DNA of 64,000 bases from a virus. Lineage: Duplodnaviria; Caudoviricetes. The stretch is from the IMG/VR virus record IMGVR_UViG_3300009648_000003, positions 39,943 to 103,942 of that record; one strand, 5' to 3'. Under the pieces are notes generated by a model, which was not told the origin of the DNA, made no database searches, and saw only the letters and a list, made by a program, of their open reading frames with translations. The position numbers were made by a program, and so were the translations under genes. Below, piece after piece: positions 1,591 through 58,110 of the stretch (position 1 is the first letter of the stretch; each line of letters starts with the position of its first letter).

Positions 1591-1620
1591 TAGCTTAGGT
1601 ATATATAGAGAGAAGGTATC
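1591..1620 (-). promoter_or_regulatory. Putative late-class phage promoter (GATAC-N15-ACCTAAGCTA)
   Basis: Motif shared with 34444-34474 and 58080-58110; immediately upstream of the lysis cassette RBS. Confidence 0.55.
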
Positions 1621-2390
1621 TAATCTTTTATTTCTTTTAATATTTTTCTTACTTTGTTCATTGTTCTAGTTATTGTTATTTTTGAGATGTCTTCTTTTTT
1701 GGCTATTTCTTCATGTGTTTCACCATTTAGTTTTGCTTTAAAAATTCTTTTATCTCTGTCATTTAACTGCGATTTAACAGCCTCTAATAGTTGATCTAAA
1801 TATATTTTTTCAACAATTTCTTCTTCAACATTAATATTTACATCTTTGAGTTCGTATTTATAATTAGGTATTTCATTGTTTTCATATTTATTTTTCTTAC
1901 AGAATGGGATAAATTCAGGCAAGCTTCCCACAGTTAAAATTTTCTGTACTTTATCTATATCTTCTTCTATTTCCTCTGCAATTTTTTGTACAGGTATAAA
2001 TTTATCGTAGTATAAATTCTCTGTACAATTCATGATTTTTACATTCAAGTCATGTGCTGATCTAGGAAGTTTAATTAACCTTCCTTTTGTTCTTATATAG
2101 TCTTTTACCTCCCCCGCAATAATTGCGGGGGCATAGGTTGTGAATAATACACCTTTTGTACAATCAAAATTATCAACAGCCTTTATAAAACCAATTCTAC
2201 CTATTTGTTGTACATCATCTTTCTCCATACCATTGTATTTTGCTAATTTAACTGGGTCACCTACATAGTTTCTAATTGAAAACCAAATTAAATCTTCATT
2301 GTGTATTATTAATTCTCCTAAGTATTCTCTATCTGTTTTAGCTCTTTCAATATTTTCATTATCATGTAACGAATACTTTTTTTCTGCCAT
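1620..2390 (-). CDS. Sigma-70 family sigma factor, SigF/SigG/SigB-like
   Basis: Region 2 DDVQQIGRIGFIKAVDNFD..KG..FTTYA...IAGEVKDYIR, IKLPRS, a region 3 HTH and region 4 THEEIAK...ISKITITR. Confidence 0.9.
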   Translation of the reverse strand: MAEKKYSLHDNENIERAKTDREYLGELIIHNEDLIWFSIRNYVGDPVKLAKYNGMEKDDVQQIGRIGFIKAVDNFDCTKGVLFTTYAPAIIAGEVKDYIRTKGRLIKLPRSAHDLNVKIMNCTENLYYDKFIPVQKIAEEIEEDIDKVQKILTVGSLPEFIPFCKKNKYENNEIPNYKYELKDVNINVEEEIVEKIYLDQLLEAVKSQLNDRDKRIFKAKLNGETHEEIAKKEDISKITITRTMNKVRKILKEIKD

Positions 2391-2424
2391 TTTAAAATCT
2401 CCTTAAATGAATAAAAGGCAAGAT

Positions 2425-2709
2425 TTACTCACCTTTTATTCTTCTTTTTGTAGACGAAGACATCTGAACTACAACCGTTTTTGTAGCTGGTATTATTGTA
2501 GGTTTTCCTGTGTGTAAATCTTTAGCTCTTTTAGCTTTTCTTTCTCTTACCTTAAAGTTGAAAAAGTTATTTAACATAACATCATTCCCAGCTTCTAATT
2601 GAGAAACAATAACTTCTGCTACCTGGTCTAATCTTTCCTTAGCTTCAGCTGTGGATATATTATAGGTATCAGCATAAATTTTGGTTAATTCGGCTTTATT
2701 TATTTTCAT
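2425..2709 (-). CDS. HU/IHF family DNA-binding protein
   Basis: 94 aa; NKAEL..., DVML.NF.NFKVRERKAKRAKDLHTG....IPATKTV. Confidence 0.9.
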   Translation of the reverse strand: MKINKAELTKIYADTYNISTAEAKERLDQVAEVIVSQLEAGNDVMLNNFFNFKVRERKAKRAKDLHTGKPTIIPATKTVVVQMSSSTKRRIKGE

Positions 2710-3407
2710 TTTAATTCCTCCTCAATTCTTTCTTTTTCTTTTTGTACTCTGTTATAAACAGATTTTACTTTTTCGTAGTATTTTGTATTATAAGTGCCTC
2801 TGTTTACATTACCTTGACCTTGATTGTATGCTATAGTGGCTATTTTTCTATCACCATATTCATTTTTTAAATAGGTGTAGTATTTAAATCCTGCTTCAAC
2901 ATTTTTAGATGGTTCATGTAATTGTTCTTTAGAAACTCCGTATATTTTAGCCGTACTAGGTATAATTTGCATTAATCCTCTTGCCCCTTTTTTTGAAATA
3001 GCATTTGTATCAAATCTACTTTCTGTGTACATCATAGATAACATCCAATATGGGTCTAGTTCTTCTTTTTTAGAGTTTGTAACAATTAATTTTGAAATAT
3101 TTCTTGCCTCTTGATTAGATATTTTTGGCTGTAATTTTTTTATAATTAAAGAAATTATTGATTCATCTGTTAAAGATTCCGAAGATGAATTTTCTTTTTT
3201 TGTGAAGACTTTGGCAGGTAAAAATTCTTCTTTATATGGTTTCTTTTTGTTTTCTTTTCCTATGCTATTTAAACTTTCTTCTTTTTCCATGTTGTGTGAG
3301 TTTTCTTCTTTTATTTCATCTTTAGATGGGGCTGGAGGAGCAAAACTAGTGGTACACAATACTACCATAAAAAGTCCTACTATTAGTATAGTAGACTTAA
3401 ACTTCAT
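2706..3407 (-). CDS. Lytic transglycosylase (SLT domain) with N-terminal signal peptide/anchor
   Basis: TESRF...A.S.KGARGLMQI.P.TA, AYNQG.G; hydrophobic N-terminus. Confidence 0.9.
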   Translation of the reverse strand: MKFKSTILIVGLFMVVLCTTSFAPPAPSKDEIKEENSHNMEKEESLNSIGKENKKKPYKEEFLPAKVFTKKENSSSESLTDESIISLIIKKLQPKISNQEARNISKLIVTNSKKEELDPYWMLSMMYTESRFDTNAISKKGARGLMQIIPSTAKIYGVSKEQLHEPSKNVEAGFKYYTYLKNEYGDRKIATIAYNQGQGNVNRGTYNTKYYEKVKSVYNRVQKEKERIEEELK

Positions 3408-3408
3408 T

Positions 3409-4002
3409 TTATATGAACTCCTTTCTTTGCAAATAATAAATTATTGCTTCATGTAATTGCTCTGGATTCGCCTTTCCCACATGAATAGGTATTATAGTTG
3501 GATTATTCTTTGCTAGGAGTGTATAAACTCTTCTGGCTCTATTAAGAAATTCTAAATCTTTTTCAAAAAGATCTTCTCGTTGTTCTTTTCTTTTTATAGA
3601 TTCTTCTACAGATATATCCAATAAAAAAACTATATCAGGTTTTCTAACATACTCTTGCAATATATTTAACCAATTATAACTTAGGTTGTTAGCAACACCA
3701 AAGGCTATATTTGAATGGGTGTATCGGTCTAATATTAAAAAATCACACCCTGATTTTTCTAGATCTTCTATTGTTTTCATAAAATCTATTCTATCTACTT
3801 CATACAGCATATGGTGAGCTTCTGGTGTTAAAGTTACTTTACCTTCTAAGGACTTTTTTATTAACTTCCCCAATTCTGTATCATATCTTGGAAAAGATTC
3901 AAAAGCTGTATTATACCCTTTTTCTTTTAAGTAACTATTGAGTAGTCTTGCTTGTGTTTCTTTACCAGATGCATCTATACCTTCAAATGAGATAATTTTC
4001 AT
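3409..4002 (-). CDS. tmk: Thymidylate kinase
   Basis: FEGIDASGKETQ P-loop, FPRY, LDRY..S, KPDIVFLLD. Confidence 0.92.
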   Translation of the reverse strand: MKIISFEGIDASGKETQARLLNSYLKEKGYNTAFESFPRYDTELGKLIKKSLEGKVTLTPEAHHMLYEVDRIDFMKTIEDLEKSGCDFLILDRYTHSNIAFGVANNLSYNWLNILQEYVRKPDIVFLLDISVEESIKRKEQREDLFEKDLEFLNRARRVYTLLAKNNPTIIPIHVGKANPEQLHEAIIYYLQRKEFI

Positions 4003-4484: not shown

Positions 4485-4485
4485 A

Positions 4486-4926: not shown

Positions 4927-4932
4927 TGTGTA

Positions 4933-5429: not shown

Positions 5430-5486
5430 TTTAGCCCTCCTTTCATATAATAAATATTAAATACACTTAATACGTGTAATGTTTAG

Positions 5487-5885: not shown

Positions 5886-5895
5886 ATAAATAACA

Positions 5896-6714: not shown

Positions 6715-6744
6715 TAATATACGATTAAAATTAATTTATGAATA
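6715..6744 (-). promoter_or_regulatory. Putative middle-class phage promoter (TATTCA-N14-TCGTATATTA)
   Basis: One of 4 copies with identical spacing; directly downstream of a terminator. Confidence 0.75.
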
Positions 6745-6746: not shown

Positions 6747-6770
6747 AAAAACCCCTAATTAGGGGTTTTT
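6747..6770 (-). terminator. Intrinsic terminator (could act bidirectionally)
   Basis: Perfect palindrome AAAAACCCCTAATTAGGGGTTTTT downstream of nrdJ. Confidence 0.8.
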
Positions 6771-6938: not shown

Positions 6939-9900
6939 TTAATTATTTTTTGATTTTTTATCAATATTTAGAATCTGTGTGTCTCTACTTCCATCTACAT
7001 AAACAGTTATACCTTTTAGCCCTTTTTTATATGCTAGTTCGTAAAGTTTTTTATTATCTTCAACTGTAAAAGTGGCGGGGGCATTGACAGTTTTAGAAAT
7101 ACTACTATCTATCCATTTCTGAGCAGCTGCTTGGACTAATACATGTTCTTCAGGAGTTAATTCCATAGCACTAACATAGTAATCAGGAAGTTCGGTAGCG
7201 TTAGGGTTCTCTTCAAAATACTTTTGTGCTATAGGAGCATTAATTTCTATAAACTCTCCCATCCTCCCACTTCTATAATATTTAAAAGCAAAATAAGGTT
7301 CTATACCATTACCAACTCCAATCATACTGCCTGTACTTCCTACAGGTGCTATAGTTAAACTGGTTACATTTCTTATACCATATTTTCGTATTTTTTCTCT
7401 TATACTTCTTGGCATTTGTTTCATATATCCTGATTCTAAAAATTTATCTTTATCAAAATAATAGAAAGATCCTTTTTCTTTTGCTAAATTAACTGATTCA
7501 TCATAAGAGACTAAAGCAATGAATTTTAATAATTTTTCTGTTAATTCTATCATTTCAGGACTGCCATATCTTAATTTTTGGTTAATCATTAAATCAGCTA
7601 ATCCTGTTATTCCTTTCCCAACTCTTCTCTCTCTTTTTGACATTTTTTCATTTTCATCTATGAAGTAATAACTAGCATCAATAACATCATCACTAAATCT
7701 TTGGGATATTCTTGTAATTTTTTCTAACAATTCATAGTCTATTTTTCCATCCTTACTTATTTCAGCTAAATTTATTGCACCTAAATTACAAACCCCGTAT
7801 TTAGGGAGCCCCTGCTCCGCACAGTTATGAACGATAAGACCATTGGTATTGTAATGATGCATTGTATCAACAGTAATGTCATATACATCCTCTATTCCGT
7901 CAAATTTTATAGATTTAATCTTTAGTATTTTTTTCTTTTTTTCTATAACTGAAGAGTTCTTTGTTTTTCTTTCCATCATAGTTTTATTTTTGTATTCAGT
8001 TAAAAACCCTATTTTCTTAAAAGTAACATCGTAAACCATTATTTTATAAGTTGTATCATTATTTCTTATCTTACCATCAGAGGATTTGTATTTTCTTGCA
8101 TTATTATGAACTGATATACTAGAGTACACCCCAAATTCTTTTAAAATTCTTTGGATATGAAGTAAAAACTGTTTATTATTTGAATATAAAGTTGCTATTC
8201 CCTCACATCTAGAACTACCATCACAAGTAAACAGTGCTCGTAATAAGCCTAGTTTCATATCTTTTGTTAATTTATCATAATCAATATCAAATTTATTTGT
8301 TTCACTATTTATTTTTAAGTCCTTTAAAAGTTTTTGTCTATACTCATACTTACATATTCGACCTTCATAACAAGTATTTGGTTTACTTGCATGGGGTTTA
8401 AATTCAAAGTTTGGATCATATTTTCTTAACATCTGCTCAAGTCTGTCTCTGTATTCAAACTCATTTTCACCTACTGCAATAGCAATCCATCCTCTTTTAC
8501 TTATTTCATCTTGTTTGTATAACGCCCCATCCGCTAGTAACCAACCTAATAGTATACCTTTCTCGTATTCTTCTTGATTTGTAACTACAGGTTCAAAAAC
8601 AGGGGTATAGTCTACTAATACTTTAGAACCTTCCTTTAAATATCTTAATTCTATATCACCCTCAGGTGTTGTTACTCTATGATTATCTGTCATTCTAATT
8701 TCAGTACCGTTTTCTAAAGTTACCTTATAAACTTCTTTAGTTCCTGTTTTAAACATTGGAGTAGATTTATATTTCTTTCCTCCTAAAACAATATGGTCAA
8801 CAATATTTTCAATCTTCTTAAATCCATCTTCTGTTAGAATATATTCTCCTTTAGGTTGACATGGATTTGTAATCATAATAGTTGTGTAATAATATGAATT
8901 AGCTTCTTTATTATATCTATCAATAAAGATAACTCCGGGCTCTGCTGAGTATCTAGCACATATATTTATTAAATCCCATAAATCTCTAGCAGGTATTGTT
9001 TCATATACTTTTGTAGGTAGTCCTCTTCTTTCCCATTCTTCTATTAATCCATTCATATTAACCCACTCTGTATCATATATTTCTTTCTGTTCTTTAGTTA
9101 AATTTTCTAGATCAGGGTATTTTAATTCCCACATATCCCCCGCCTTCACTTTTTCCATGAAGTCATCTGTAATTAATACAGATATATTAGCACCACTCAT
9201 GAATTCCTTATCAACCACATCTACAGGGTTTCCGTTCTCGTCTCTTATAAGATACATTTCAGCTATTTCAGCAATACGTGGGTTGGTGTGGTTGCTCAAT
9301 AGATCTAATAGATAAGGATTTTGTATTTTACACATAGTAAATTCGAGTATATCTGGGTGCCATATATGCTGTCCTATCATTTGGGCTCCACGGCGGGAAC
9401 CTGCTTGAGATATTAAATGAGTAAGTTCAGATAGATAATTAGCCCACGAAATACTACCACTGGAAAATCCATTTACTCCTTTTACAACCGCATTTCTAGG
9501 TCTTAATGTTGATATACAACTGCCAACACCACCACCTCTACTCATGATTTCTGTAGCAGTTTTAATATGATCTATTATACCGCCCCTGCTATCAGGAACA
9601 TTCCCCAATGAAAAACAATTAAACAGAGTTACATCAGCAGGGTTCCCAGCACCATATAATATTCTACCCCCTGGAATATAGTATTTATTAGAAATCATCC
9701 AATAAAAATCTTTAAACACTTCATCTTGTTTATCGGGGTTTTCTACCCCTGCTATAGCTTTAGCAACTCTATAAGCAATCTGTTCCCAATAAATTTCTAA
9801 TGGTTTAGTTATTTCTCCTTTAGATTTTTCTAAATTCTTTAAATCAACACCTTCTACGTATTGTGGGTATTCTATGTCAACAGTTACCCTGTCACCTTGA

Positions 9901-10130
9901 ATTTGTTTTATTTCCCCATAACCTATTATTGGATAGTTAGAGTTATTTTTTATTGATGTTAGAACTAGATCTCCTTGTTTTAAAGTTTCTAGTAAAGTAT
10001 CTTTCAAGGAGTACCTATCTAACATAATTAACCGCTGAAAACCATCAAAAGTGGTTAATTTTTCCCCTTCTTCTGGAATCCAAATAAAGGGGAATTTCTC
10101 ATATTCATTCTTTTTCAATTGTTTATACAT
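6939..10130 (-). CDS. nrdJ: Class II (AdoCbl-dependent) ribonucleotide reductase precursor containing an intein
   Basis: PGGRIL, TLFNC, GGGVG, RRGAQM, ANISV, EPG, TNP|CAEQ..CNLG.INL, TIAP.G, DSSISKT, KG.TVY.DGSR; no nrdB nearby. Confidence 0.9.
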   Translation of the reverse strand: MYKQLKKNEYEKFPFIWIPEEGEKLTTFDGFQRLIMLDRYSLKDTLLETLKQGDLVLTSIKNNSNYPIIGYGEIKQIQGDRVTVDIEYPQYVEGVDLKNLEKSKGEITKPLEIYWEQIAYRVAKAIAGVENPDKQDEVFKDFYWMISNKYYIPGGRILYGAGNPADVTLFNCFSLGNVPDSRGGIIDHIKTATEIMSRGGGVGSCISTLRPRNAVVKGVNGFSSGSISWANYLSELTHLISQAGSRRGAQMIGQHIWHPDILEFTMCKIQNPYLLDLLSNHTNPRIAEIAEMYLIRDENGNPVDVVDKEFMSGANISVLITDDFMEKVKAGDMWELKYPDLENLTKEQKEIYDTEWVNMNGLIEEWERRGLPTKVYETIPARDLWDLINICARYSAEPGVIFIDRYNKEANSYYYTTIMITNPCQPKGEYILTEDGFKKIENIVDHIVLGGKKYKSTPMFKTGTKEVYKVTLENGTEIRMTDNHRVTTPEGDIELRYLKEGSKVLVDYTPVFEPVVTNQEEYEKGILLGWLLADGALYKQDEISKRGWIAIAVGENEFEYRDRLEQMLRKYDPNFEFKPHASKPNTCYEGRICKYEYRQKLLKDLKINSETNKFDIDYDKLTKDMKLGLLRALFTCDGSSRCEGIATLYSNNKQFLLHIQRILKEFGVYSSISVHNNARKYKSSDGKIRNNDTTYKIMVYDVTFKKIGFLTEYKNKTMMERKTKNSSVIEKKKKILKIKSIKFDGIEDVYDITVDTMHHYNTNGLIVHNCAEQGLPKYGVCNLGAINLAEISKDGKIDYELLEKITRISQRFSDDVIDASYYFIDENEKMSKRERRVGKGITGLADLMINQKLRYGSPEMIELTEKLLKFIALVSYDESVNLAKEKGSFYYFDKDKFLESGYMKQMPRSIREKIRKYGIRNVTSLTIAPVGSTGSMIGVGNGIEPYFAFKYYRSGRMGEFIEINAPIAQKYFEENPNATELPDYYVSAMELTPEEHVLVQAAAQKWIDSSISKTVNAPATFTVEDNKKLYELAYKKGLKGITVYVDGSRDTQILNIDKKSKNN
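7824..8861 (-). mobile_element. Intein (346 aa) with LAGLIDADG homing endonuclease in nrdJ
   Basis: TNP|CQPKGEYILT...T.NH...LLGWLLADG...LLRALFTCDG...VYDITV..HHY.TNGLIVHN|CAEQ; removal restores NPCAEQ. Confidence 0.95.
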
Positions 10131-11083: not shown

Positions 11084-12142
11084 TTACCCCCTTATTATCT
11101 CTTGCACTATAGTAAACATTTGGGTATATAGTTTTCCTTCATTTTCTTTTATATCTTTTATTAGTGCTTCTTGTGTTCTCTTTGTTCCATTCCATTTTAA
11201 TTCTTTGCCTTCTTCATCCACCATTATTTCTCCTGTACGAGGATCTGTAAATGTGAGCCAACTAGTCCCCTGTAAAACACCTATTTCTTTGCATACCGCT
11301 ACAAGTTCAGCTATTTTATCTACTCCATGCTCATAGTATAAGTCTATTGTTGCTTGTCTGAATGGTGGGGCTATTTTGTTTTTTATTACTTTTACTCTAA
11401 TTTGTTGACCAAAATATTTTTTATCTTTACCTGTACCTTTGGTAAAATAGTCTCCTATAGCCACTTCAAGAGTGTGAGTACTTGCATGTTTTAAACTTCT
11501 GCCTCCCGATGTAGTTGTCGGAGTTCCATATAATGAGAAACCACCTATCTTATCTCTCAGTTGCTGAATAAATATTAATGAAGTTCCTGATTCTCTTAAT
11601 AATCCTGAATTAACTAATTTCCTCATTGCCTTAGAATTTATTTTAGCAGTACCCCCAACTCTTGATTCTTTATCCCAATCTGTTTCCTGCAATTCTTCCT
11701 TAGGTATTAAGCCATCAACAGAATCTAATGTAATAATACTAAATTTCTTACTTCTTAGCATGTATTCAATCATATCATATACTTTTTCTGCATGAGTATC
11801 AGGTTGTAATATCATTAACCGATCTAAATTAACCCCTAATTTTTGAGCCCAATCAGGGCTAAATCCATTCTCTAAATCTATCAGTGCAGTTTCTTTTTCA
11901 GGTTCATTTACCTGTGCTTCTGCAATAGCCATATAAGCTATAGTGGATTTTCCAGCTTTTTCAGCCCCCTGGAGGAGGGCTAGTCTGCCTTGAGCAAATC
12001 CTCCCCCCATTGCTAAATCTAATAATAAAGAACCTGAGGGTCTAACTTTTATATCAGTCAGTCTCTCATCCTCACCTAAGAGGAATATAGAATCTTCTCC
12101 AAACTCTTTTCTGAAAGAGTTTAAAAAATCTTTAGTATCCAT
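11084..12142 (-). CDS. recA: RecA-like recombinase
   Basis: SGSLLLDLAMGGG, Walker A GAEKAGKST, LDSV, QLRDKIG, TTSGGRSLKH, KNKIAPPF. Confidence 0.95.
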   Translation of the reverse strand: MDTKDFLNSFRKEFGEDSIFLLGEDERLTDIKVRPSGSLLLDLAMGGGFAQGRLALLQGAEKAGKSTIAYMAIAEAQVNEPEKETALIDLENGFSPDWAQKLGVNLDRLMILQPDTHAEKVYDMIEYMLRSKKFSIITLDSVDGLIPKEELQETDWDKESRVGGTAKINSKAMRKLVNSGLLRESGTSLIFIQQLRDKIGGFSLYGTPTTTSGGRSLKHASTHTLEVAIGDYFTKGTGKDKKYFGQQIRVKVIKNKIAPPFRQATIDLYYEHGVDKIAELVAVCKEIGVLQGTSWLTFTDPRTGEIMVDEEGKELKWNGTKRTQEALIKDIKENEGKLYTQMFTIVQEIIRG

Positions 12143-14556: not shown

Positions 14557-14586
14557 AAATATACGAAATAGATAATAAATTGAATA
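14557..14586 (-). promoter_or_regulatory. Putative middle-class phage promoter (TATTCA-N14-TCGTATATTT)
   Basis: Same motif and spacing as 6715, 21465 and 26234. Confidence 0.72.
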
Positions 14587-14642: not shown

Positions 14643-14667
14643 AAAAAAGACTAGGTTTCCCTAGTCT
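14643..14667 (-). terminator. Intrinsic terminator
   Basis: AGACTAGG-GAAA-CCTAGTCT followed by a T-tract on the minus strand. Confidence 0.8.
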
Positions 14668-16540: not shown

Positions 16541-16821
16541 ATTAAAGCCCCCCTCCTAAAGTCAGAATCACGTAACCCTTCATTGCAAGCTTCTTCATAA
16601 TTACTTGTAGCCATAAAATCCACACCATCTATTGTTAAATAGTAGAAATATTTATTATCATCCTCAACTGTATAATCATAATCTAAACGTACTTTTGATG
16701 AAAAGAACTTGGATAATTTTTTAATCCTGTCAACACTGATGTGTATATAATTTGAGCCTATAGCACCCATTTCTTCTCGAATTTTTAAATATAATTTAGC
16801 ATTTTCCAAAAAATTATACAT
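16531..16821 (-). CDS. Hypothetical protein
   Basis: Overlaps both neighbours. Confidence 0.6.
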   Translation of the reverse strand: MYNFLENAKLYLKIREEMGAIGSNYIHISVDRIKKLSKFFSSKVRLDYDYTVEDDNKYFYYLTIDGVDFMATSNYEEACNEGLRDSDFRRGALIWG

Positions 16822-18985
16822 CTTCTTCCCCCCATAGTTCTTTTAAATCATCTTCATTCATCTTTTGACCCCATCTTTCAGATATTTCTATATCAGATTT
16901 CATTCCACATTTTAGTGGAATTGCGTTGCACATAATCTCTGCAAATTCTTTCAAGGGCTCCATACCTAAATCTTCAGGTATATCCAGTATTATCTCATCA
17001 TGAACCCAGAGTAATATATTACAATCATATTTCTTGAGGGCGGGTTGTAAGTCTATAGTAGCCTTCTTAGTCATATCAGCAGCAGAGTTATGGCACATGA
17101 AATTAGATGCTATATAACTATGGTCCTCTGTAAATATCTCAATATCCATTGTAGGTCTTACACCTAAATCTTCAATACTAGTTATCTTTGTAAAACTAAT
17201 AGTATCTAATAGATAAATGAACCTATTAACTTCTTCTGTTTCCTCACACATTTTTAAATACTTTAAACAGGAGTCTTTTGTAGCACTACCTTGTTTAAAC
17301 CTATAAACATGACTTCGTTCACTTGCTGTCAGTTTTTTGAATAGTTCTTTATCCTTCCTTAGTACTTTATAAACATCCATTATTAAGTCTCTTGGAACTA
17401 ATGACCTAGTTTTTAAATTCAGGTACTTATTTAACCTATCTTGCTTATGCTTTATCTTAAACCCAATTAATTCATTAAATCGTTTATAAGAGTTTAAATC
17501 TACAAAAGTCCTGAACACACCTTCTTCAGTTTCTCTAAACCTAGCTCTAATTCCTAATGATTCTAATAACAAATACACTTTAAAACTCACATCTCTACTT
17601 ATAGAGGTAAACGTCAGAGTATTACTACTCCATCCACCATCTGCATTAAATAATCCTCTTAAAATCTGGCATCTTACATCAGTTGGAGCAGTTAAATACC
17701 ACTCAGGTATTATCTTGTTCTTACCTGATACTTGAGTTAACCCTAATTCTTTTAACATGTCTCTAAAGTTTTTATTATTAATTACTAATACATACGCCTC
17801 TCCCACACTACCTCTACTTCTTTCAATTTTCTGTTTTGTAAGATTATAATTAGTTCTCAAATAGCTATCTATTTCTTTTAAATATGATAGTTTTTTCCTA
17901 CCTCCACTTATACTTATATCTCTGTTGTTAGTATAAGAACCGTCACCTATAATAGCACCTAAAAACTCATGTATGGTCATATCATTATCAGTTACCGCTA
18001 CTTTTGGTGTGTAATTTGCAATAGCTATAATATCTCCTACCTTCAAACTTTCTAAAGGTACAAAGATTAACTCACCTTTATCATATATTGCAAATCTGTG
18101 TTCTGCGGTAGCATCTATTGAAGTGTGTAAAGTATTTAATCTATATAGCTTCTTCTCCCCACTATTCCATACTTTGTAATCTTTTGTTGTACCTGAAAAG
18201 GTTACTAACTCATGATTAGTAATATCTTTTATAGGCACATACCCCTCTGTAGTTAATATTGGAGTTTCAATATCTAAGCACCCTTGTATGGGTGAGTTCA
18301 TTCCTACTCTATAAGCTGATTCTAGTAGCCATTGTTGCCCTGAAGTTACTTCTGGGTACAACCTTCTTTTTCTTCCCAATAATGTCTCTACATACATTTT
18401 TTCTCTTACTTGTTTTTTAGTTTCTTCCATCCATTTTGCCACCCCAGGGTAAGTTTGCTTGTAAGATTGTATATACATCATTGCCTCTTCCTCAGTTATT
18501 TCTAAATTTTCTGCTAACCCTATAGGAGTAGTGCCATATACAATTGAAAAGTTAACTGCCTTAGCTTTACCTCTCATTTTTTCATACTCAAGACCTAGTT
18601 CTATTTCTTTTATAAGAGTATCTCTGTCTTTAGTTAAAATAATTCCTTCTTTTAATGCTCTATCTAGATGTATATCATCATCTATTTTTTTATAGTCAAT
18701 ATTACCATCTTTATCTCTAAAAGTTTCAGATACTTTCCTTAATCTTTGAAAAGTATCTATATCTGTTTTTTTATCTGGGAATTTATTATTCCATATTGTT
18801 ACAGCTGTAGTAGAATGTACATCTCCTCCAGTGGTAAATATTTCATACATTACCTTATCCCCTGAGATTTCTGTTAATATTCTTAACTCTTGACTGGAAA
18901 AATCCAAACTAGCCAATAATCTTCCTTCATCTGCAATAAAAGCGTTCCTGATTAAATTTGTGTAACTTGGTATCTGTTGTAAATT
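16814..18985 (-). CDS. polA: DNA polymerase family A, exon 2 (contains intein)
   Basis: NLQQIP, motif A DFSSQELRIL, motif B R.KAKAVNFSIVYG, NSPIQG|SAAD, motif C VHDEI. Confidence 0.93.
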   Translation of the reverse strand, partial: NLQQIPSYTNLIRNAFIADEGRLLASLDFSSQELRILTEISGDKVMYEIFTTGGDVHSTTAVTIWNNKFPDKKTDIDTFQRLRKVSETFRDKDGNIDYKKIDDDIHLDRALKEGIILTKDRDTLIKEIELGLEYEKMRGKAKAVNFSIVYGTTPIGLAENLEITEEEAMMYIQSYKQTYPGVAKWMEETKKQVREKMYVETLLGRKRRLYPEVTSGQQWLLESAYRVGMNSPIQGCLDIETPILTTEGYVPIKDITNHELVTFSGTTKDYKVWNSGEKKLYRLNTLHTSIDATAEHRFAIYDKGELIFVPLESLKVGDIIAIANYTPKVAVTDNDMTIHEFLGAIIGDGSYTNNRDISISGGRKKLSYLKEIDSYLRTNYNLTKQKIERSRGSVGEAYVLVINNKNFRDMLKELGLTQVSGKNKIIPEWYLTAPTDVRCQILRGLFNADGGWSSNTLTFTSISRDVSFKVYLLLESLGIRARFRETEEGVFRTFVDLNSYKRFNELIGFKIKHKQDRLNKYLNLKTRSLVPRDLIMDVYKVLRKDKELFKKLTASERSHVYRFKQGSATKDSCLKYLKMCEETEEVNRFIYLLDTISFTKITSIEDLGVRPTMDIEIFTEDHSYIASNFMCHNSAADMTKKATIDLQPALKKYDCNILLWVHDEIILDIPEDLGMEPLKEFAEIMCNAIPLKCGMKSDIEISERWGQKMNEDDLKELWGEEDV
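17087..18280 (-). mobile_element. Intein (398 aa) with LAGLIDADG homing endonuclease in polA
   Basis: PIQG|CLDIETPILT...AT.EH...FLGAIIGDG...LRGLFNADG...TMDIEI..HSYIASNFMCHN|SAAD. Confidence 0.95.
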
Positions 18986-19446
18986 CATCTCGTTGTAGAG
19001 GGTTATTTAATCCCCTCACCCTCGTTTCCGAGGGGATCGGACTATATCATTATCTTATAATCTGTTTGTACCTGCTGTAATTATCACGCAATCTAAAGTT
19101 CTCATAACCTACATACACCCAATCATAGAACTTTAAACTAATCCCCTACAGTCATCTCTAATTTAAGGTATATGTGGTGTTTACCCCTACTGTAATTGTT
19201 TTCTTTTAATAAATAATCTCTGGCGAACTCCATCCTCTCACCTCCCCTTCTTAAATATTCAGATTATAAGATATTGGGTGCTCGTGTTTTCCTCATCACT
19301 GGTCTAGTGGTACGAAATTAGTCTCTGAACCTTCTAGGTATCCCTACCTAGCTCGGCTGCTGATTACCCTCGACATCACTCGTTAGGGTTCCCAGCAATT
19401 CTCCCAATTTTCATTAGTAAGTCGCCTTACTATGCCCCAATCTTTT
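18986..19446 (-). mobile_element. Group I self-splicing intron (461 nt, IA-like) in polA
   Basis: Exon ends in U paired U.G in P1 (CCCU/AA with UUGGGG); intron ends in G. P AAUUGCUGGGAA, Q AAUCAGCAG, R UUCAGAGACUA, S GAUAUAGUCC; GNRA-capped P2/P6/P9; 13-bp P8. Splicing restores TGRMSSSNP-NLQQIP in frame. Confidence 0.95.
19050..19233 (-). pseudogene. Degenerate homing endonuclease remnant in intron P8 loop
   Basis: RBS GGGGAGGTGA + ATG gives 31 codons to TAG; the +1 frame continues SLKFYDWVYVGYENFRLRDNYSRYKQIIR*, resembling a LAGLIDADG C-terminus. Confidence 0.55.
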
Positions 19447-20799
19447 AGGGTTAGAACTACTCATTCTACCTGTATTTTTAATAGTAGAAAAGCTAGTATG
19501 AATTCTTCCATCTATAATTTGTTCTGGCAGTTTATCTGCAAAAGCATCTGTTAATTTTTTCTTTTGTCTGTATTCCATAATCATAGGAATTACTTCATGA
19601 TAATTTTTTAATTTTTTTAGTGTAGCTCTGTCTGTAGATTCAGGTTTCTTTTTATTTACTCTTGGCAATTTTAAATCTTCATATAATGCTTTAGATAGTT
19701 GTTGAGGTGAATTTAAATTTATTTCCCCTGTGTATTTATATATTTTTTTCGTAAGTTCATCTAATTCTTGATGAAGTTGGGGAGCTACTGTATTAACTAA
19801 ATAATCCTCATCTACTCTTATTCCTCTTTCCTCCACTTTTACTACTATATTTATAAATGGTATTTCTATATTAAAGTACAAATCATGCAATTTTTGTAAC
19901 TGAGGTGATTTTAAATGTTTAATTTGAAATTCATACATTTTATATGTTAATTCTGTGTCTTTAGCAGCATAGAATGTAGCCATGTTTCCTGTTTTATTTT
20001 TAGGATTAATTAAAATAGGAACTTGGTCGAACGTTATATTACCAAATAGAGTAGAGAAAGTATCACTGGGTATCTTTAAATAGTAAGTAGCCATATCCTT
20101 TAATGCTTTTGATTGTGTTTCATCTAATATAGCCTGAGCTATCATAGTATCAAAATAACAAACAGGTTTTGCTCCTATATATCTTCGTATTATGTGATAG
20201 TCAAAACCATAGTTATGGTATAATTGTTTTAAATCTTTCCTTTCTAATTGAGGTTTTAATTTATTTGCTACTAAACTTAAAGGTAAACATTTTACATAAT
20301 CTTCACCTAAAACCAATTTATTTCTCCCCCCGCCCTTTTTGTATTCAAGATAAGCTTCTTCATTATGTCTTATATCATCTTTGTGTTTTAAGGGTATATA
20401 ATAACCTTGGTGGGGGGCATAAAAAGAAATACCTACTATCTCATCCCTATATTTATCTACTCCTGTAGTTTCAGTATCTATTGCAACCATACTTAGCCCA
20501 CTTAACCATACAATTAATTCCTCTAAATCTTGTTCAGTCCATACAGTATTATAATGAAATGGTAATACTGTTTCATTTGACATTTTTATAATTTCTAATT
20601 CTTTCTTTTTAAAATTCTTCCTCTTAGCCCGTGCAAGAAAATTTTCTACTTCTTCGTCTGTGTTTAATGATGGAAATTTATCTTTAAACAAAGGATATAC
20701 TTCATCCAAATACCACTTTTCTTTAACTCTTAGCTTTCTCTTTCTTTTCTTTTTATTATTCTTATTTAGAATACTTTCAATCTCTTCATAAATATCCAT
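19447..20799 (-). CDS. polA: DNA polymerase family A, exon 1 (3'-5' exonuclease and start of polymerase domain)
   Basis: AIDTETTG, HN..FD, YAAKD, NLNSPQQL, TGRMSSSNP; 451 codons up to the 5' splice site. Confidence 0.93.
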
Positions 20800-20831
20800 A
20801 CAATTCCCTCCTCAGATAATAAAAAGATAGC

Positions 20832-20851
20832 AAAAAGCCCCTAAAAGGGGC
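20832..20851 (-). terminator. Intrinsic terminator/attenuator between ssb and polA
   Basis: GCCCC-TTTTA-GGGGC-TTTTT. Confidence 0.65.
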
Positions 20852-20861
20852 ATAGTAATAA

Positions 20862-21431
20862 CTAAAAAGGAAAAGTATCCTCATCGTCTGATTCGATCGG
20901 TGTTACATCAGTAACTTTTTGATTTATAAGGTTCTCTATTTCTTCAGGAGACATAGGTTCTATTAAAGATTCAATATCAGGTATCTCTAAATCTGTTGTG
21001 TCAAAATCACTAGGATCCCTTGGAAAAAATTGATACACTGTCTGTAATCCTTCCCCTTGTCTTAAAACTTTAAAATTTCTTTTGGTTAGATCTCCATATT
21101 CTTCTGCTAATCCTACTAAAGTAACACCAACAGTTTTTGATGCTTTAAATATTTTTACTCTTTCATCCTTAAAATCAAATACAGGTACATACGTCCTAAA
21201 AGAAGCATATTTTCCTGCCTTACATAAAGGACAATTCTCTTTTCCCAAACATCTTATATTCATCCATCTACCATTTATTTTTTCAGTATGTTCATACACA
21301 CTTATTAGTTCATCTAATGGTTGGATTATTCTTATTTCTGTTGATTCACCTGCTTTCAAACTTAACATAGAAGTACTATTTTTGTTCGCTTCCCTTATAG
21401 CTCCCAATCCTTTTCCTAAATATACATCCAT
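20862..21431 (-). CDS. Single-stranded DNA-binding protein (gp32-like)
   Basis: H...C....CPLC Zn motif, acidic-aromatic tail DDEDTFPF, upstream of polA; start reassigned to ATG 21431 with RBS GGAGGA. Confidence 0.75.
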   Translation of the reverse strand: MDVYLGKGLGAIREANKNSTSMLSLKAGESTEIRIIQPLDELISVYEHTEKINGRWMNIRCLGKENCPLCKAGKYASFRTYVPVFDFKDERVKIFKASKTVGVTLVGLAEEYGDLTKRNFKVLRQGEGLQTVYQFFPRDPSDFDTTDLEIPDIESLIEPMSPEEIENLINQKVTDVTPIESDDEDTFPF

Positions 21432-21464
21432 TAAAATTCCTCCTTTATCTTTTACTTTCGTTAT

Positions 21465-21494
21465 TAATATACGAAGGAACCACCATAGTGAATA
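21465..21494 (-). promoter_or_regulatory. Putative middle-class phage promoter (TATTCA-N14-TCGTATATTA)
   Basis: Conserved motif upstream of ssb-polA. Confidence 0.75.
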
Positions 21495-21524
21495 AAAAAA
21501 AGAGGAAGAAAATTTTCTTCCTCT
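21494..21524 (-). terminator. Intrinsic terminator ending the primase-sigma unit
   Basis: Palindrome AGAGGAAGAAAATTTTCTTCCTCT followed by a T-tract. Confidence 0.75.
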
Positions 21525-22146
21525 AATCAAACCACTTCAAAACTATTTTTCTTACACGTAACCAATCCTTTGCTACTGTTGGTCTTGATACCCCCATCTT
21601 ATCCGCTATTTCCTGATGTGTATATCCAGCATATCTTAATTTTAATATTTTCTGTTCTCTTGGAGTTAATTTATCTTCTAAATCTGCAATCATTTTGGTA
21701 AATAATTTATATTCCGAAATTTCATCAGTAAGATTATGACTTAAATGTTGTATTTCAACTTTCTTATTTGATCGCTCAGTAGATGAACTAACTGATGTTT
21801 CACCTGTGCAGTATGTTATGATTTCAGCACAATAAGTATCATGTAAACCACTGAATCCCTGAAGTGTGGGTTGTGTCCATGAGTGTCTAATATGGTCTAT
21901 TATTGTATTTTCTATAATTTGTGTAAAATAAGTATTGGCAGTAGCTTTGCATGAGTCAAATTTTTTGTATGCTTTAAACACTTTTAACATAGCATCTTGC
22001 ATTACATCTTCTTCATCAATATAATTAGGCAATTTTACATTTTGAGTATGCAATTTATGATTACATAATTTCCTTGTTGCTAATAATAATTCATCTAACT
22101 CCCCCTCCGCCACCATTTCATTGAAAGTTCTTTTTGTTTCTTTCAT
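21523..22146 (-). CDS. Sigma-70 family sigma factor, ECF-like (regions 2 and 4 only)
   Basis: EEDVMQDA.LKV.....FD....A.TY...I..N..ID..R; LTPREQKIL.LRY.G.T.QEIA..MG.SR.TV. Confidence 0.85.
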   Translation of the reverse strand: MKETKRTFNEMVAEGELDELLLATRKLCNHKLHTQNVKLPNYIDEEDVMQDAMLKVFKAYKKFDSCKATANTYFTQIIENTIIDHIRHSWTQPTLQGFSGLHDTYCAEIITYCTGETSVSSSTERSNKKVEIQHLSHNLTDEISEYKLFTKMIADLEDKLTPREQKILKLRYAGYTHQEIADKMGVSRPTVAKDWLRVRKIVLKWFD

Positions 22147-23152
22147 AAAAATCCCTCCTGTAAAATTTTGAACTTATTAAATCATAGTAATAGTTCATGT
22201 ATGGCACCATTGTTATGTCATTTAACTTACCCCCTAATAATAAATCATTAGGGTCTTTGAACATAGTTTTATCTACTGTGTCAATTCCCCATTGAATAGG
22301 GTATTTAACTACATCCACTCTTATGGGTGTTTTTGATATAATTTTATAAGCATCTAAATTTCCTTTTACCCCCCACTCATCATTATCTAAAAATAACATT
22401 ACTTTAGTAATTCCAGCTAATTGTAATAATTTAAGTTGATTTTTTGATAAAGTTCTTCCCATTAATCCTACAGCAGGTAGCTTAGCTTCATAACATGATA
22501 ATACATCTATAGCACCTTCTACAATAAATACTTCTTTTACTTTACCATATAAGTAGTTTAATCCATATAGTGTTTTATGTTTAGGGGCACCTTTTGGAAT
22601 TTGATAGAATTTAGTGTTTACATCCCTCCTTATCACAAATAATGGATTTCCATGTAAATCCCTGACAGGAAAGACTATAGAATGATTTTTTTCATCATAC
22701 CCTATCTCATATTTTTGTAGTGTATAATCTGAAATACCTCTAGTTTCTATATAACTATGTTTCTTTTTTCGATAATTAAATATTTCTTCTTCAGTAACAC
22801 CCCCCTCTTGTGAATTATTTTCTGGGGCACTAAATGATAAATTAGCTGTTGCATAATTATTAATTATTTTTGCATACGCTTTCAAGTAATTAATTTGGAA
22901 TATATCTGCTATCAAAGTTATTAATTCTCCTGATGCCCCACAACTGAAACAATTGAATAAATAGGGATATTCTGTGCTTATTCCGAAAGAGGGTTTAGTC
23001 TCTTTGTGATATGGACAGCACATATTTATATTACTATAACCTATTTTTCTTTTAGTAAATGCAGTAGGGTTGTATTTATATTGTGGTGATTTTACCCATT
23101 CTGATTGTAAATCGTCCAATACTTCTTCTATATCTACATAGTATCTATCCAT
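22118..23152 (-). CDS. dnaG: DNA primase (Zn finger + TOPRIM)
   Basis: CPYH.E..PSF...FNCFSCG, IVEG.IDV, FLDND, KDPND; start reassigned to ATG 23152 (RBS AGAGGG). Confidence 0.9.
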   Translation of the reverse strand: MDRYYVDIEEVLDDLQSEWVKSPQYKYNPTAFTKRKIGYSNINMCCPYHKETKPSFGISTEYPYLFNCFSCGASGELITLIADIFQINYLKAYAKIINNYATANLSFSAPENNSQEGGVTEEEIFNYRKKKHSYIETRGISDYTLQKYEIGYDEKNHSIVFPVRDLHGNPLFVIRRDVNTKFYQIPKGAPKHKTLYGLNYLYGKVKEVFIVEGAIDVLSCYEAKLPAVGLMGRTLSKNQLKLLQLAGITKVMLFLDNDEWGVKGNLDAYKIISKTPIRVDVVKYPIQWGIDTVDKTMFKDPNDLLLGGKLNDITMVPYMNYYYDLISSKFYRRDFYERNKKNFQ

Positions 23153-23196
23153 ATAAAACAACCCTCTTTCTTTTCTATAATTTCTGTTCACATAAC

Positions 23197-23225
23197 ATAA
23201 TAGCACAACACTTGACATTTTTCAA
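23197..23225 (-). promoter_or_regulatory. SigA-type promoter P2 for primase-sigma (TTGAAA-N17-TATTAT, extended TG)
   Basis: Exact 17-bp spacer; -35 overlapped by inverted repeat ACTTGA-N6-TCAAGT. Confidence 0.6.
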
Positions 23226-23249: not shown

Positions 23250-23261
23250 GAACATATGTTT
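23250..23261. promoter_or_regulatory. LexA/DinR (SOS) box 1
   Basis: GAACATATGTTT matches the Gram-positive GAAC-N4-GTTY box; covers the predicted start site of P1. Confidence 0.7.
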
Positions 23262-23290
23262 ATTATATACTAAAACTTATGTTCTGTGAA
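23262..23290 (-). promoter_or_regulatory. SigA-type promoter P1 (TTCACA-N17-TATAAT) with SOS box 2 (GAACATAAGTTT, 23273-23284) in its spacer
   Basis: Read directly from the sequence; the two boxes bracket the -10. Confidence 0.7.
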
Positions 23291-26233: not shown

Positions 26234-26263
26234 TAATATACGAAATAAACCTATAAATGAATA
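26234..26263 (-). promoter_or_regulatory. Putative middle-class phage promoter (TATTCA-N14-TCGTATATTA)
   Basis: Shares TTCACTCTTAATATACGA with the 6715 copy. Confidence 0.75.
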
Positions 26264-34443: not shown

Positions 34444-34474
34444 TAGTTTAGGTTAAACATAACAGCACCCTATC
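34444..34474 (-). promoter_or_regulatory. Putative late-class phage promoter (GATAG-N16-ACCTAAACTA)
   Basis: Motif shared with 1591 and 58080. Confidence 0.55.
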
Positions 34475-52808: not shown

Positions 52809-52809
52809 T

Positions 52810-55992: not shown

Positions 55993-56000
55993 AACATCAC

Positions 56001-57425
56001 CTATAAAAACCTTTCCATCATTAATTTTCTAAATCTGTTTAATATGGTTACAGCATGTGCTCTAGTCATGAATGTATTTGGCATAAACCACATCTCCCCA
56101 CCTTCTCCCTGGTGTACTGGGTTCTTATTAGAATCCACTTTAACTGTTTTTACCCCTTCATGTTCTGTAATTTCTTTTACTGGCATCCCATTTACCATCA
56201 ACTCGCCACTACTCAACATTTCTTGTTCTAATGCTAATATGTGGGGAGCCCACCATGAATCATCTCTTGGGTCAGCATTTCCAACGGTTCCGTTTACATT
56301 ATGATAAGTACCTTTATCGACTCTATAATATTTTGTATGAACACCCACATCGGCAAGGTGATTACTCTTGTTTTTCTCTCTTTTTATTCTAACTATATCT
56401 CCCTCTTTTAAATAATTTTTAAAAACAATAGTATAGCCATCATATTCTTCGTAATCCACACCAACTTTTTGTTTTTTACCATTTAAATAAACTTCTATAT
56501 CATTTTTGCCCACATCGTACCTGCCAGGTATACTGACTGCTCTCTGCCAATCATATGCTTCTATTTCAACATCAAGTATATGTGTTGAAGCCTTTGTATC
56601 GGAAAATCTACTATAAAAAGTTCTCCTTAATCTATCTACAAGCACAAAAGCTTCCGCCCTTGTAATATAAGCATCAGGAAATACTCGGTTATAATGTAAT
56701 ATAGTATCAGTTACAGGGGTAACCTCCTCTGTATTCACCTTTATATAGCCCTCATTAGTAAGATAAGTTACTTTACAAGTAACCCCATTTAAATTATAAG
56801 GAACATGTAAAATACCATCAGGAGCAATAAAATATACATCATCATGATAACTGATATGTTTCCTCAATACTTCTTGCCTTCTATTTGGGTCTGCATCCCA
56901 CTCCTCTTGGGTTATATTAGCACGTTTTAAATATTTACCAAATACTGAAACATACTCCCTTTTATCACGATAAAAAGGGTTATAGTAATAATTAGCATAC
57001 CCCTTTAACCTTTTATTTGGGTATCTTATACTTTCACCGCTAGTTTGTGTAGGTCTTCCAAATTCGTCTAATTTTGGAACACCATAACTTGCAAACGCTA
57101 CAATAGCGTTTGCAGGTGCCCCACTGTATAAAGTAACTTTTGTTTTACCACCTTCAGCAGCTACTTCTTTATAAACAGTTTGGACCCCATTTATATATAC
57201 AAACAAAGGGTTATCATTTGTTGGAGTTATAGCTTTATTTAACGTAAATTCTTTTTGTCCCGCTGTTGCTTTAAATTCTTGATAAATATAAGGTTTTGTA
57301 GGTTCAAATACATTATATGGAATACCTACAATTAAAGGCTCACCATCCTCTAGGATAATATTTGAAGCTTCAACTATTTCGTTATAATACCATTTGTTAG
57401 AAGTCACATCTAAAAATCTACTCAC
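56001..57425 (-). CDS. Tail protein with two interrupted SLH motifs
   Basis: F.DV...WYY..I ... P...ITRAEA..L.R; LADV...WW...I ... F.PN..MTRA.A...LNR. Confidence 0.7.
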   Translation of the reverse strand: MSRFLDVTSNKWYYNEIVEASNIILEDGEPLIVGIPYNVFEPTKPYIYQEFKATAGQKEFTLNKAITPTNDNPLFVYINGVQTVYKEVAAEGGKTKVTLYSGAPANAIVAFASYGVPKLDEFGRPTQTSGESIRYPNKRLKGYANYYYNPFYRDKREYVSVFGKYLKRANITQEEWDADPNRRQEVLRKHISYHDDVYFIAPDGILHVPYNLNGVTCKVTYLTNEGYIKVNTEEVTPVTDTILHYNRVFPDAYITRAEAFVLVDRLRRTFYSRFSDTKASTHILDVEIEAYDWQRAVSIPGRYDVGKNDIEVYLNGKKQKVGVDYEEYDGYTIVFKNYLKEGDIVRIKREKNKSNHLADVGVHTKYYRVDKGTYHNVNGTVGNADPRDDSWWAPHILALEQEMLSSGELMVNGMPVKEITEHEGVKTVKVDSNKNPVHQGEGGEMWFMPNTFMTRAHAVTILNRFRKLMMERFL

Positions 57426-57431
57426 ATTTAT

Positions 57432-58055
57432 CTACTCCCTTAATATTTTCTCAAGTAACCGCCTTGTACGATTTAACATTGCAACAAACTCAGCTCTGGT
57501 CGTAAAATCATTTGGTCTAAAATATAAAACAGGGTCTCCCTCCACAGTAGTAACTGATAATGTACCTAAATTTGCCATTTCACTTATCTGTTCTTCTGCC
57601 CAATGTCCCTGTATATCTTGAAATTGGAAAAAATCCTTTTTATCATACTGATCTTTCTTAATAAGTATTAAAGTTATGTCTAACAAATATCTTGTACTTG
57701 CTTCCACCGCCCTAGGTTTAACATCATCAACTGTCCCAATATAAATTTGACCTCGTTCATCATAAAATTTATGGGCACCACCTATATAACTCATATACTC
57801 AACATAAGAACGCCTATCTAAAAATAATAACCCAAATGTTGATTTATATGCTGAAATACCTGAATGGTGTAAATGAGATGGTCCATCTAATATATCAATT
57901 TTAGCAACTTTAGGCACTGGTGATGGTGGGGTATATGGTTCAACAATATGTGCATCAACTTCTTTAAACTCCATTCCTACATCCACAAACAACCTTTTTT
58001 TATACTTATGTTTATCATCATCTAATGGATTTACATAAGGTTTTTGTCTTGACAT
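57432..58055 (-). CDS. Distal-tail (Dit)-position protein with C-terminal SLH motif
   Basis: First tail gene after the TMP and moron; FQDIQGHWAEEQI..MA.LG...FRPN..TTRAEFVAMLNR. Confidence 0.72.
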   Translation of the reverse strand: MSRQKPYVNPLDDDKHKYKKRLFVDVGMEFKEVDAHIVEPYTPPSPVPKVAKIDILDGPSHLHHSGISAYKSTFGLLFLDRRSYVEYMSYIGGAHKFYDERGQIYIGTVDDVKPRAVEASTRYLLDITLILIKKDQYDKKDFFQFQDIQGHWAEEQISEMANLGTLSVTTVEGDPVLYFRPNDFTTRAEFVAMLNRTRRLLEKILRE

Positions 58056-58079
58056 TTACACACCCCCAATTCTACTTAA

Positions 58080-58110
58080 TAGTATAGGTATAATGTGTTA
58101 CTCAAGTATC
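58080..58110 (-). promoter_or_regulatory. Putative late-class phage promoter (GATAC-N16-ACCTATACTA)
   Basis: Directly after a terminator and before the tail operon. Confidence 0.6.

Follow-up and report, generated by a model that had tools for sequence, protein, structure and literature searches.

Two promoter classes and a putative sigma-factor relay with LexA-type boxes at its entry in a phage from anaerobic digesters

The window analysed here is a stretch of 64,000 nt, bases 39943-103942 of one 103,942-bp IMG/VR virus record (IMGVR_UViG_3300009648_000003), in which nearly all genes lie on the minus strand. It carries two sigma factor genes (sigma 1 and sigma 2), two recurrent promoter-like elements (motif A and motif B) and two tandem SigA-type promoters (P1 and P2) upstream of a primase gene and the sigma 1 gene, an arrangement that may be read as a relay from the host SigA through sigma 1 to sigma 2. 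The features on which this reading is built, in window coordinates, are the following.

58080-58110, minus: motif B promoter of the distal-tail block; terminator at about 58121-58146 upstream; conserved in related contigs L041/G001 with a diverged spacer
34444-34474, minus: motif B promoter of a late block (153, 197, 400, 789 and 830 aa); conserved in L042/G001
26235-26263, minus: motif A promoter of an operon with a 142-aa gene, DnaC-like, DnaB, 91-aa and 65-aa genes, then (past P1/P2) primase and sigma 1
23262-23290, minus: P1, SigA-type TTCACA-N17-TATAAT, upstream of primase and sigma 1; scored 11/12
23273-23284, minus: LexA-type box 1, GAACATAAGTTT, within the P1 spacer
23250-23261, plus: LexA-type box 2, GAACATATGTTT, just past the P1 -10 and over the likely start site
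23197-23225, minus: P2, SigA-type TTGAAA-N17-(TGc)TATTAT, between P1 and primase; no LexA box
23177-23191, minus: element GTGAACAGAAATTAT at the P2 start site
22118-23152, minus: DnaG-type primase gene; Pfam Zn_ribbon_DnaG and Toprim
21523-22146, minus: sigma 1 gene, 207 aa, sigma-70 regions 2 and 4; 29-nt overlap with the primase gene
21501-21524, minus: strong intrinsic terminator ending the primase-sigma 1 unit
21466-21494, minus: motif A promoter of the single-stranded DNA-binding protein (SSB) gene (20862-21431), then DNA polymerase and downstream genes
14558-14586, minus: motif A promoter of an operon from a methylase-like gene via RecA to ribonucleotide reductase; terminator 14648-14667 upstream
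6716-6744, minus: motif A promoter of the operon closing with sigma 2; terminator 6747-6770 directly upstream
1620-2390, minus: sigma 2 gene, 256 aa, SigB/F/G-like; Pfam sigma-70 r2 and r4_2
1591-1620, minus: motif B promoter abutting the sigma 2 stop codon, before holin (1039-1560) and amidase (288-1073), which it would drive

Motif A (TATTCA-N14-TCGTATATT) has exactly four matches in the window, all on the minus strand, where shuffled sequences predict 0.01, and each match precedes an operon, the last of which ends with the SigF/G-like sigma 2. Motif B (GATAS-N15/16-ACCTAWRCTA) has exactly three matches, likewise all on the minus strand and with 0.00 expected from shuffles, and these precede tail, structural and lysis genes. 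Both placements had been described in an earlier note made from the letters of the window, and both stood when the search was carried to the whole genome and to related phages, where the two motifs are kept. In particular, a slightly relaxed motif A has nine sites in the whole genome versus 0.09 expected, each located 19-144 nt 5′ of an open reading frame (ORF) with a ribosome binding site and in the right orientation; all seven sites of a relaxed motif B, versus 0.2 expected, are on the strand of the late genes. In an unbiased k-mer count over 57 upstream regions, TCGTATATT ranks first, and the same count yields no third recurrent motif and none attributable to sigma 3, a further sigma factor described below.

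Across the genome and 10 related contigs there are 30 motif A sites, all placed correctly 5′ of genes, with the consensus tttTATTCAyTT-N-yCGTATrtTwA-N3-GTGAA; the boxes are invariant among relatives, while the spacers have diverged. Within the -10 box, the CG directly upstream of TAT is invariant, and a GTGAA element lies 5-7 nt past the -10 of every motif A promoter. Moreover, an intrinsic terminator is found upstream of three of the four motif A sites in the window and of the motif B site at 58110, directly abutting two of the motif A sites, and these terminators therefore divide the genome into discrete units.

The gene order around sigma 1 links this protein with motif A. At all ten related loci that were compared (L003-L009 and L064-L066), a sigma 1 homologue with 44-57% identity has a conserved terminator at its 3′ end and motif A immediately beyond it, within a synteny of DnaC-like, DnaB, primase, sigma, SSB and polymerase genes that is kept among relatives. 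Further, in the window as in L004, L007 and L009, motif A heads a DnaC/DnaB operon that continues through primase to sigma 1. The primase-sigma 1 unit had been described as terminator-bounded: the strong downstream terminator at 21501-21524 bears this out, whereas the upstream candidate, a hairpin formed by the two LexA-type boxes, is too weak to serve as one (-9.3 kcal/mol, z = -1.8, no T-run). Because that hairpin is weak and no terminator was found between 26235 and 21524, read-through from the motif A promoter at 26235, as envisaged earlier, would make sigma 1 self-amplifying, and such positive feedback is plausible from the layout. Extracytoplasmic function (ECF) sigma factors have autoregulated promoters of the AAC (-35) and CGT (-10) type; motif A stands before the sigma 1 operon and has CGTAT without exception in its -10, but its -35 is TATTCA and not of the AAC type. 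The order of gene, terminator and promoter, the autoregulatory layout and the CGT-containing -10 are what suggest the pairing of sigma 1 with motif A.

The sigma 1 protein scores 44.1 bits for sigma-70 region 2 and 36 bits for region 4, the only sigma-70 regions found with Pfam models, and its AlphaFold model has two confident domains, at about residues 8-91 and 141-206, joined by a linker (89-150) of two or three helices with a predicted local distance difference test score (pLDDT) of 43-58; the middle region of about 60 residues is also poorly conserved. Its family counts 24 members with 50-59% identity, from metagenomes and viral contigs only, some on contigs of 70 kb and 18 kb, and a tblastn search against phages gave no match. 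GTDB species genomes contain only generic ECF sigmas with 21-29% identity to sigma 1, and therefore offer no prophage copy and no clue to the host. No candidate anti-sigma gene was recognised beside sigma 1, whose neighbours are the primase gene and, past the terminator, the SSB-type gene.

Upstream of the primase gene, two GAAC-N4-GTT[CT] boxes flank the TATAAT of P1, in agreement with the two LexA-type boxes noted earlier over a SigA promoter. Five distinct lineages have a box of this form in the spacer of P1, with invariant half-sites, a varying N4 and diverged flanks; in the relatives, it reads GAACATAAGTTC (L003/L064), GAACAAATGTTT (L004), GAACAAGTGTTC (L006/L065) and GAACATATGTTC (L009). 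L009 also has a second box at the place of box 2 in the window, and L007 has no box. The GAAC-N4-GTTT form, which is that of box 1, occurs at the lexA, recA and ruvC operators of Clostridioides difficile; the recA operator, which has served in LexA binding work, has the same sequence as the L004 box. Only two GAAC-N4-GTTY sites lie elsewhere in the genome, both inside genes, making P1 its only boxed promoter.

Boxes at an equivalent position are found in the nearest cultured relatives, the Jenstvirus phages (Brevibacillus phage Jenst and Bacillus phage EZ-2018a), whose portal proteins are 45-46% identical to that of the phage studied here. For example, Jenst (L105, 100500-109500) has a perfect CGAACAAAGGTTCG located 9 nt past a promoter of the sequence TTGACG-N18-(TGg)TAATAT, and the genes that follow are DnaB, primase and a 179-aa ORF; its boxes are perfect CGAAC-N4-GTTCG sequences of the Bacillus type, and a second one precedes the preceding operon. 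In EZ-2018a (L104, 43000-51000), GAACACACGTTC lies 76 nt before DnaB, primase and a small sigma-like ORF. LexA binding at P1 is rated likely because the boxes are conserved in relatives, because they have the C. difficile form and because of these Jenstvirus boxes. P2 is conserved in all five relatives, with an extended -10 (TGn) in four of them, and the element at its start site has the form GTGAAC-N9-GTGAA(C/T) in L003, L006 and L009; the GTGAA elements at the P2 start and after the motif A -10 may mark a shared 5′ end or serve as an operator.

The sigma 2 gene closes the motif A operon that starts at 6744, and no terminator was found between 6747 and 1620. Two homologues with 62-70% identity (L039 and L040) have a motif B-like element immediately 3′, which in L039 is GATAA-N16-ACCGAAGCTA. 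In G001, a related 50.6-kb late-region contig, there are six motif B sites on the gene strand, one on the other strand and none in controls, and they occupy the same gene positions as here, including the intragenic copies in the portal and other late genes. Residues 18-249 of sigma 2 align to residues 24-240 of SigF (1l0o_C), its closest solved structure, with E = 6.5e-14 over regions 2, 3 and 4. SigB/F/G is the best family of sigma 2, yet its scores lie below the curated cut-offs (103.6 against 234 bits for TIGR02980, 79.8 against 321 for spore_sigF and 78.9 against 372 for SigG), and the protein is therefore called SigF/G-like and not a curated member. The motif B -10 (CCTAWRCTA), with the variants CCTATACTA, CCTAAACTA and CCAATACTA, resembles -10 regions of C. 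difficile SigF/SigG promoters with mapped transcriptional start sites (for example, GCCAATACTG, GGAATACTAA and CACATACTAT), and its -35 GATA is like the GTATA/GAATA of the same promoters with one base fewer. Forespore-type promoters have G-ATA at -35 and xxAAtA(A/C)TA at -10; by resemblance only, motif B may be counted as one of them, a likeness that supports the pairing with a SigF/G-like sigma proposed earlier.

The remainder of the genome adds a third sigma factor and several genes of temperate or plasmid-like elements; of the following features, only the tyrosine recombinase gene lies in the window, in whose coordinates it is given.

Genome 20701-21825 (L043:4704-5825), minus: sigma 3 gene, 374 aa, outside the window
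Genome 19231-20700 (L043:3234-4700): region of a ParM-like actin gene (ALP_N) beside sigma 3, with a 108-aa ORF downstream
L043:12236-12721: ArdA anti-restriction gene
L043:16407-16769: MazF/PemK toxin gene
L002:18087-19823: large serine recombinase gene, 579 aa, with its own terminator and SigA promoter, just after the lysis genes
26346-27188, plus (window): tyrosine recombinase gene

The N-terminal 240 aa of sigma 3 are SigB/F/G-like (82.9 bits, below the cut-off) and are followed by a C-terminal extension of about 130 aa; the protein is 26% identical to sigma 2, from which its region 4.2 helix differs, and a seed search in IMG/VR returned no close relatives. Four or five AT-rich iterons (AAATTAATATAA) lie upstream of the ParM-like gene, and the layout of iterons, ParM-like gene and 108-aa ORF matches parC-parM-parR, which suggests a plasmid-like maintenance. 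A Dam methylase is also encoded. The absence of a CI-like repressor, earlier remarked upon for the window, extends to the whole genome, where six-frame searches gave no HTH_3 or Peptidase_S24 hit, many small ORFs being without assignment. Taken together, the findings point to a phage that is temperate and may be plasmid-like, with no classical CI repressor. DNA contigs of four sequencing runs yielded no consistent phage-host junction over genome 20001-40000, and thus no evidence of integration or of a plasmid. Two operator-like dyads, TGCAAGTT-N9/11-AACTTGCA, are located at L043:6140-6260 (genome ~22140-22260), in the divergent region between sigma 3 and a plus-strand block.

The best reading of this arrangement, to which slightly better than even confidence is given, is a relay from SigA to sigma 1 (motif A) and on to sigma 2 (motif B), in which sigma 1 feeds itself. 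In the first tier, the host SigA RNA polymerase would start at the tandem promoters P1 and P2 before primase and sigma 1; the host LexA probably represses P1, given the box within its spacer and the other over the start site, while P2 has no box. In the second tier, sigma 1 would take the host core enzyme to motif A (TATTCA-N14/15-yCGTATr), with the start probably at GTGAA, and thereby fire the replication and nucleotide-metabolism operons, one of which reads into primase and sigma 1 while another ends with sigma 2. The third tier would consist of the head, tail and lysis units, whose promoters carry motif B (GATA-N16-18-CCnAWRCTA) and would be served by the core enzyme with sigma 2. The motifs with their statistics, placement and conservation, the gene identities and the operon boundaries are properties of the DNA itself; from them we infer LexA binding, the timing and, through gene order, the assignment of each sigma to its motif.

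Several observations weigh against this relay. Motif A can alternatively be read as TATTCA-N17-TATATT, which has a SigA-like geometry. The description of sigma 1 as ECF-like is a loose and insecure label: besides having sigma-70 regions 2 and 4, the protein passes the general model TIGR02937 'sigma70-ECF' (81.9 bits versus a cut-off of 42.9), as do sigma 2 and sigma 3, and it exceeds the cut-off of PF07638 (26.8 against 21.1) in region 4 only, but it falls far under the cut-offs of all the specific ECF subfamily models. A Foldseek search mixes group 3 sigmas (WhiG/FliA/SigH) with ECF sigmas (Mycobacterium tuberculosis SigH, CnrH and SigE), and its sequence neighbours also mix FliA/WhiG/SigH with ECF sigmas. 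For LexA, the GAAC-N4-GTTY box is not enriched genome-wide (five strand hits at four sites versus 4.4 expected), and the case for the boxes therefore rests on position and conservation. P2, judging by its sequence, would express sigma 1 without SOS unless it is silenced by something. The third sigma, also SigF/G-like, has no attributable promoter motif of its own, and no RNA run is among the sequencing runs listed with the phage. Last, three or four copies of motif B lie inside genes. Those at genome 11232-11261, 9749-9778 and 5101-5130 (L001), in the portal gene and in two further late genes, keep their positions in G001, which suggests internal late promoters. In the SOS-started cascade claimed in the earlier note, the promoter classes and the gene-order logic are well backed by sequence statistics and conservation and the LexA input at P1 is probable, while SOS as the trigger is hypothetical and the box-less P2 would also feed sigma 1; in its two-sigma scheme both sigma genes are real, but the scheme is incomplete with a third SigF/G-like sigma outside the window.

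Known systems contain the parts of this arrangement singly. In Bacillus phage SPO1, gp28 and then gp33/gp34 form the sigma cascade of Losick & Pero's 'cascades of sigma factors'. The presumed likeness is that successive phage sigmas steer the host core RNA polymerase to middle and late promoters, each next sigma gene being in the previous class; in contrast, SPO1 is strictly lytic, has no LexA input, and has sigmas and promoter sequences unrelated to those of this phage, whose late sigma is SigF/G-like and whose first sigma appears autoregulated. UviA of the C. perfringens plasmid pIP404 is a TcdR-family group 5 sigma that is UV-inducible and serves a bacteriocin gene; its gene, uviA, is under LexA control and autoregulation. 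The phage would share with it a Clostridia-type host and an SOS-controlled SigA promoter leading to an alternative, self-amplifying sigma that fires targets on a mobile element, but motif A differs from TcdR-type promoters, and the putative targets here are whole phage operons with a second sigma to follow. GIL01 of B. thuringiensis (Fornelos et al., NAR 2018, PMC6182141), a 15-kb tectivirus, relies on the co-repressor gp7 and, for late activation, on the LexA homologue gp6, and not on sigma factors. It is a plasmid-like temperate Bacillota phage, as the phage studied here may be, with no dedicated CI and with host LexA boxes on its replication-gene promoter; its LexA boxes are also on the late promoter, whereas here P1 alone is boxed.

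Schwartz et al. (2022, PMC9429907) describe sporulation-like sigmas of Bacillota phages, several of which have up to three sigmas, and show effects on host sporulation genes and that lytic growth can dispense with such sigmas. Among these loosely SigF/G-like phage sigmas are to be counted sigma 2 and sigma 3, with the difference that sigma 2, by the arrangement described above, would have its own conserved phage promoter class before late genes. The Jenstvirus phages share the synteny of transglycosylase, HU and sigma genes and have sigma-region-2 hits (three in Jenst, two in EZ-2018a), but the small ORF that follows their primase gene has only a marginal likeness to sigma factors; in Jenst, motif A is absent and motif B does not exceed control level. 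We know of no transcription study of Jenstvirus phages.

A different account of the entry point, a strong form of the earlier note's model, is that the host LexA is the master lysogeny repressor without any phage repressor and that DNA damage alone starts the cascade through sigma 1, in the manner of GIL01. No HTH_3 or Peptidase_S24 protein is encoded in the whole genome, the serine and tyrosine recombinases, the ParM-like gene with its iterons and MazF would fit such a phage, the P1 boxes are conserved, and GIL01 is a precedent for lysogeny kept by LexA. However, the conserved, box-less extended -10 promoter P2 lies between P1 and primase, and with P1 as the only boxed promoter in the genome not all lytic entry promoters are covered; moreover, there are candidate operators for other repressors (the GTGAAC repeats at P2 and the dyads near sigma 3), and no host junction appeared in the contigs of the four runs over genome 20001-40000. 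This account is judged unlikely. A second alternative concerns motif A, which might be a middle promoter of the host SigA with an activator box in place of a weak -35, as with T4 MotA, leaving sigma 1 with another job, such as the reading of a few sites only or of host genes. The SigA spacing of TATTCA-N17-TATATT, a -10 that retains T-12, A-11 and T-7 even in CGTATG variants, and the lack of clear ECF membership for sigma 1 agree with it; yet the TATTCA box and the invariant CG before TAT are not SigA features, the GTGAA located 6-7 nt past CGTATA fits a -10 in the CGTATA register, motif A directly follows every sigma 1 gene and heads the sigma 1 operon, and no activator candidate was identified. 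This alternative is judged improbable, less likely than the LexA account.

The pairs of sigma and motif may also be wrong, such that sigma 3 or host forespore sigmas read motif B, or sigma 2 and sigma 3 share it, and sigma 2 perhaps acts on host sporulation genes. Sigma 3 is SigB/F/G-like as well, with no separate motif found for it, motif B resembles host SigF/G promoters, and sporulation-like phage sigmas can act on host genes while being dispensable for lytic growth (PMC9429907). Against these stand the abutment of sigma 2 and motif B both here and in L039, the position of sigma 2 at the end of a middle operon, where a late regulator is expected, the low identity and unlike region 4.2 helix of sigma 2 and sigma 3, and the location of sigma 3 beside partition genes and without close IMG/VR relatives, whereas motif B is conserved; a mispairing is given a similarly slim chance. 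A wider form of the relay is doubtful, if slightly less so than LexA as master repressor: the host LexA would gate a self-amplifying sigma that leads to phage RecA and a SigF/G-like sigma for late genes, with no CI, across a whole, widespread clade that includes Jenstvirus. The clade would then consist of plasmid-like temperate siphophages of anaerobic Bacillota, about 100 kb in size, whose lysis-lysogeny switch would be made of an SOS box and a self-amplifying sigma relay, possibly cross-wired to host sporulation via the SigF/G-like promoters and sigma 3.

Phage sigma cascades are, to our knowledge, a textbook idea worked out in very few phages, all of them lytic. The phage described here gives a full, readable wiring diagram, with two promoter classes, operons, terminators and a putative feedback loop, in a clade that is uncultured yet widespread in anaerobic digesters and sludge. 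The components are known singly from the SPO1 cascade, UviA, GIL01 and sporulation-like phage sigmas, and their combination here is new. A conserved host LexA box at the entry point would tie SOS to a sigma relay and not to a CI repressor. The idea can be tested at the bench because the cultured Jenstvirus phages, whose hosts are Brevibacillus and Bacillus, have perfect LexA boxes at the corresponding module. Motifs A and B are, in addition, compact and orthogonal promoter-sigma pairs, if the pairing holds, with a possible use in Bacillota/Clostridia genetics.

The record has a GC content of 32% and a CheckV completeness of 100%, and its ends overlap by 124 bp, so that the unit genome measures about 103.8 kb. 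A contig of a metagenome-assembled genome (MAG) labelled 'Bacillota bacterium' carries a 98%-identical copy that runs collinear over the ends of the record, and the genome is therefore circular or circularly permuted. A capsid search gave no match besides this MAG copy, and a megablast of 12 kb against INPHARED gave none, so that no close phage at the DNA level is present there; near-identical DNA is found in anaerobic-digester, sludge and biogas metagenomes of several studies. The best reading is that the host is an uncultured member of the Bacillota of anaerobic digesters and that the phage is a distant relative of Jenstvirus. In transcription order, the window genes are the following.

63955 down to 27200, minus: tape measure, then tail and structural genes
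Next, minus: 142-aa gene, DnaC-like, DnaB, two small ORFs (91 aa and 65 aa), primase, sigma 1
After sigma 1, minus: SSB, family A DNA polymerase (split, with intein), nucleases, RecA, ribonucleotide reductase (with intein)
Next, minus: YopX, dUTPase, dTMP kinase, transglycosylase, HU, sigma 2, holin, amidase
11084-12142, minus: the phage RecA gene, in a motif A operon; Pfam RecA 207.5 bits

Speculatively, the phage RecA could act back on LexA cleavage. A strong terminator at 20837-20851 lies between the SSB and DNA polymerase genes with no promoter after it, and is probably an attenuator that sets a high SSB:polymerase ratio. The family A DNA polymerase (window 16814-20799) is encoded by two ORFs, 19414-20799 and 16814-18988, separated by a gap of about 425 nt; the second contains an intein with a LAGLIDADG domain, and the ribonucleotide reductase gene (6939-10130) is also intein-bearing. 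The tape-measure ORF crosses the ends of the record, from window 58604-64000 on into genome 124 to about 3100, and would encode about 2,800 aa.

An Rfam scan found one tRNA and nothing else. A GC-rich and seemingly structured non-coding region of about 230 nt (L043:6390-6620, genome 22390-22620), in a genome of 32% GC, has no Rfam match. Further, a 24-nt repeat, TTTCTGATTTAGCTTTGAAAAAAA, occurs at genome ~23830 and ~25380 (L043:7830 and 9380), and its two copies are located immediately 5′ of the ribosome binding sites of an amidoligase-like gene and a glutamine amidotransferase-like gene.

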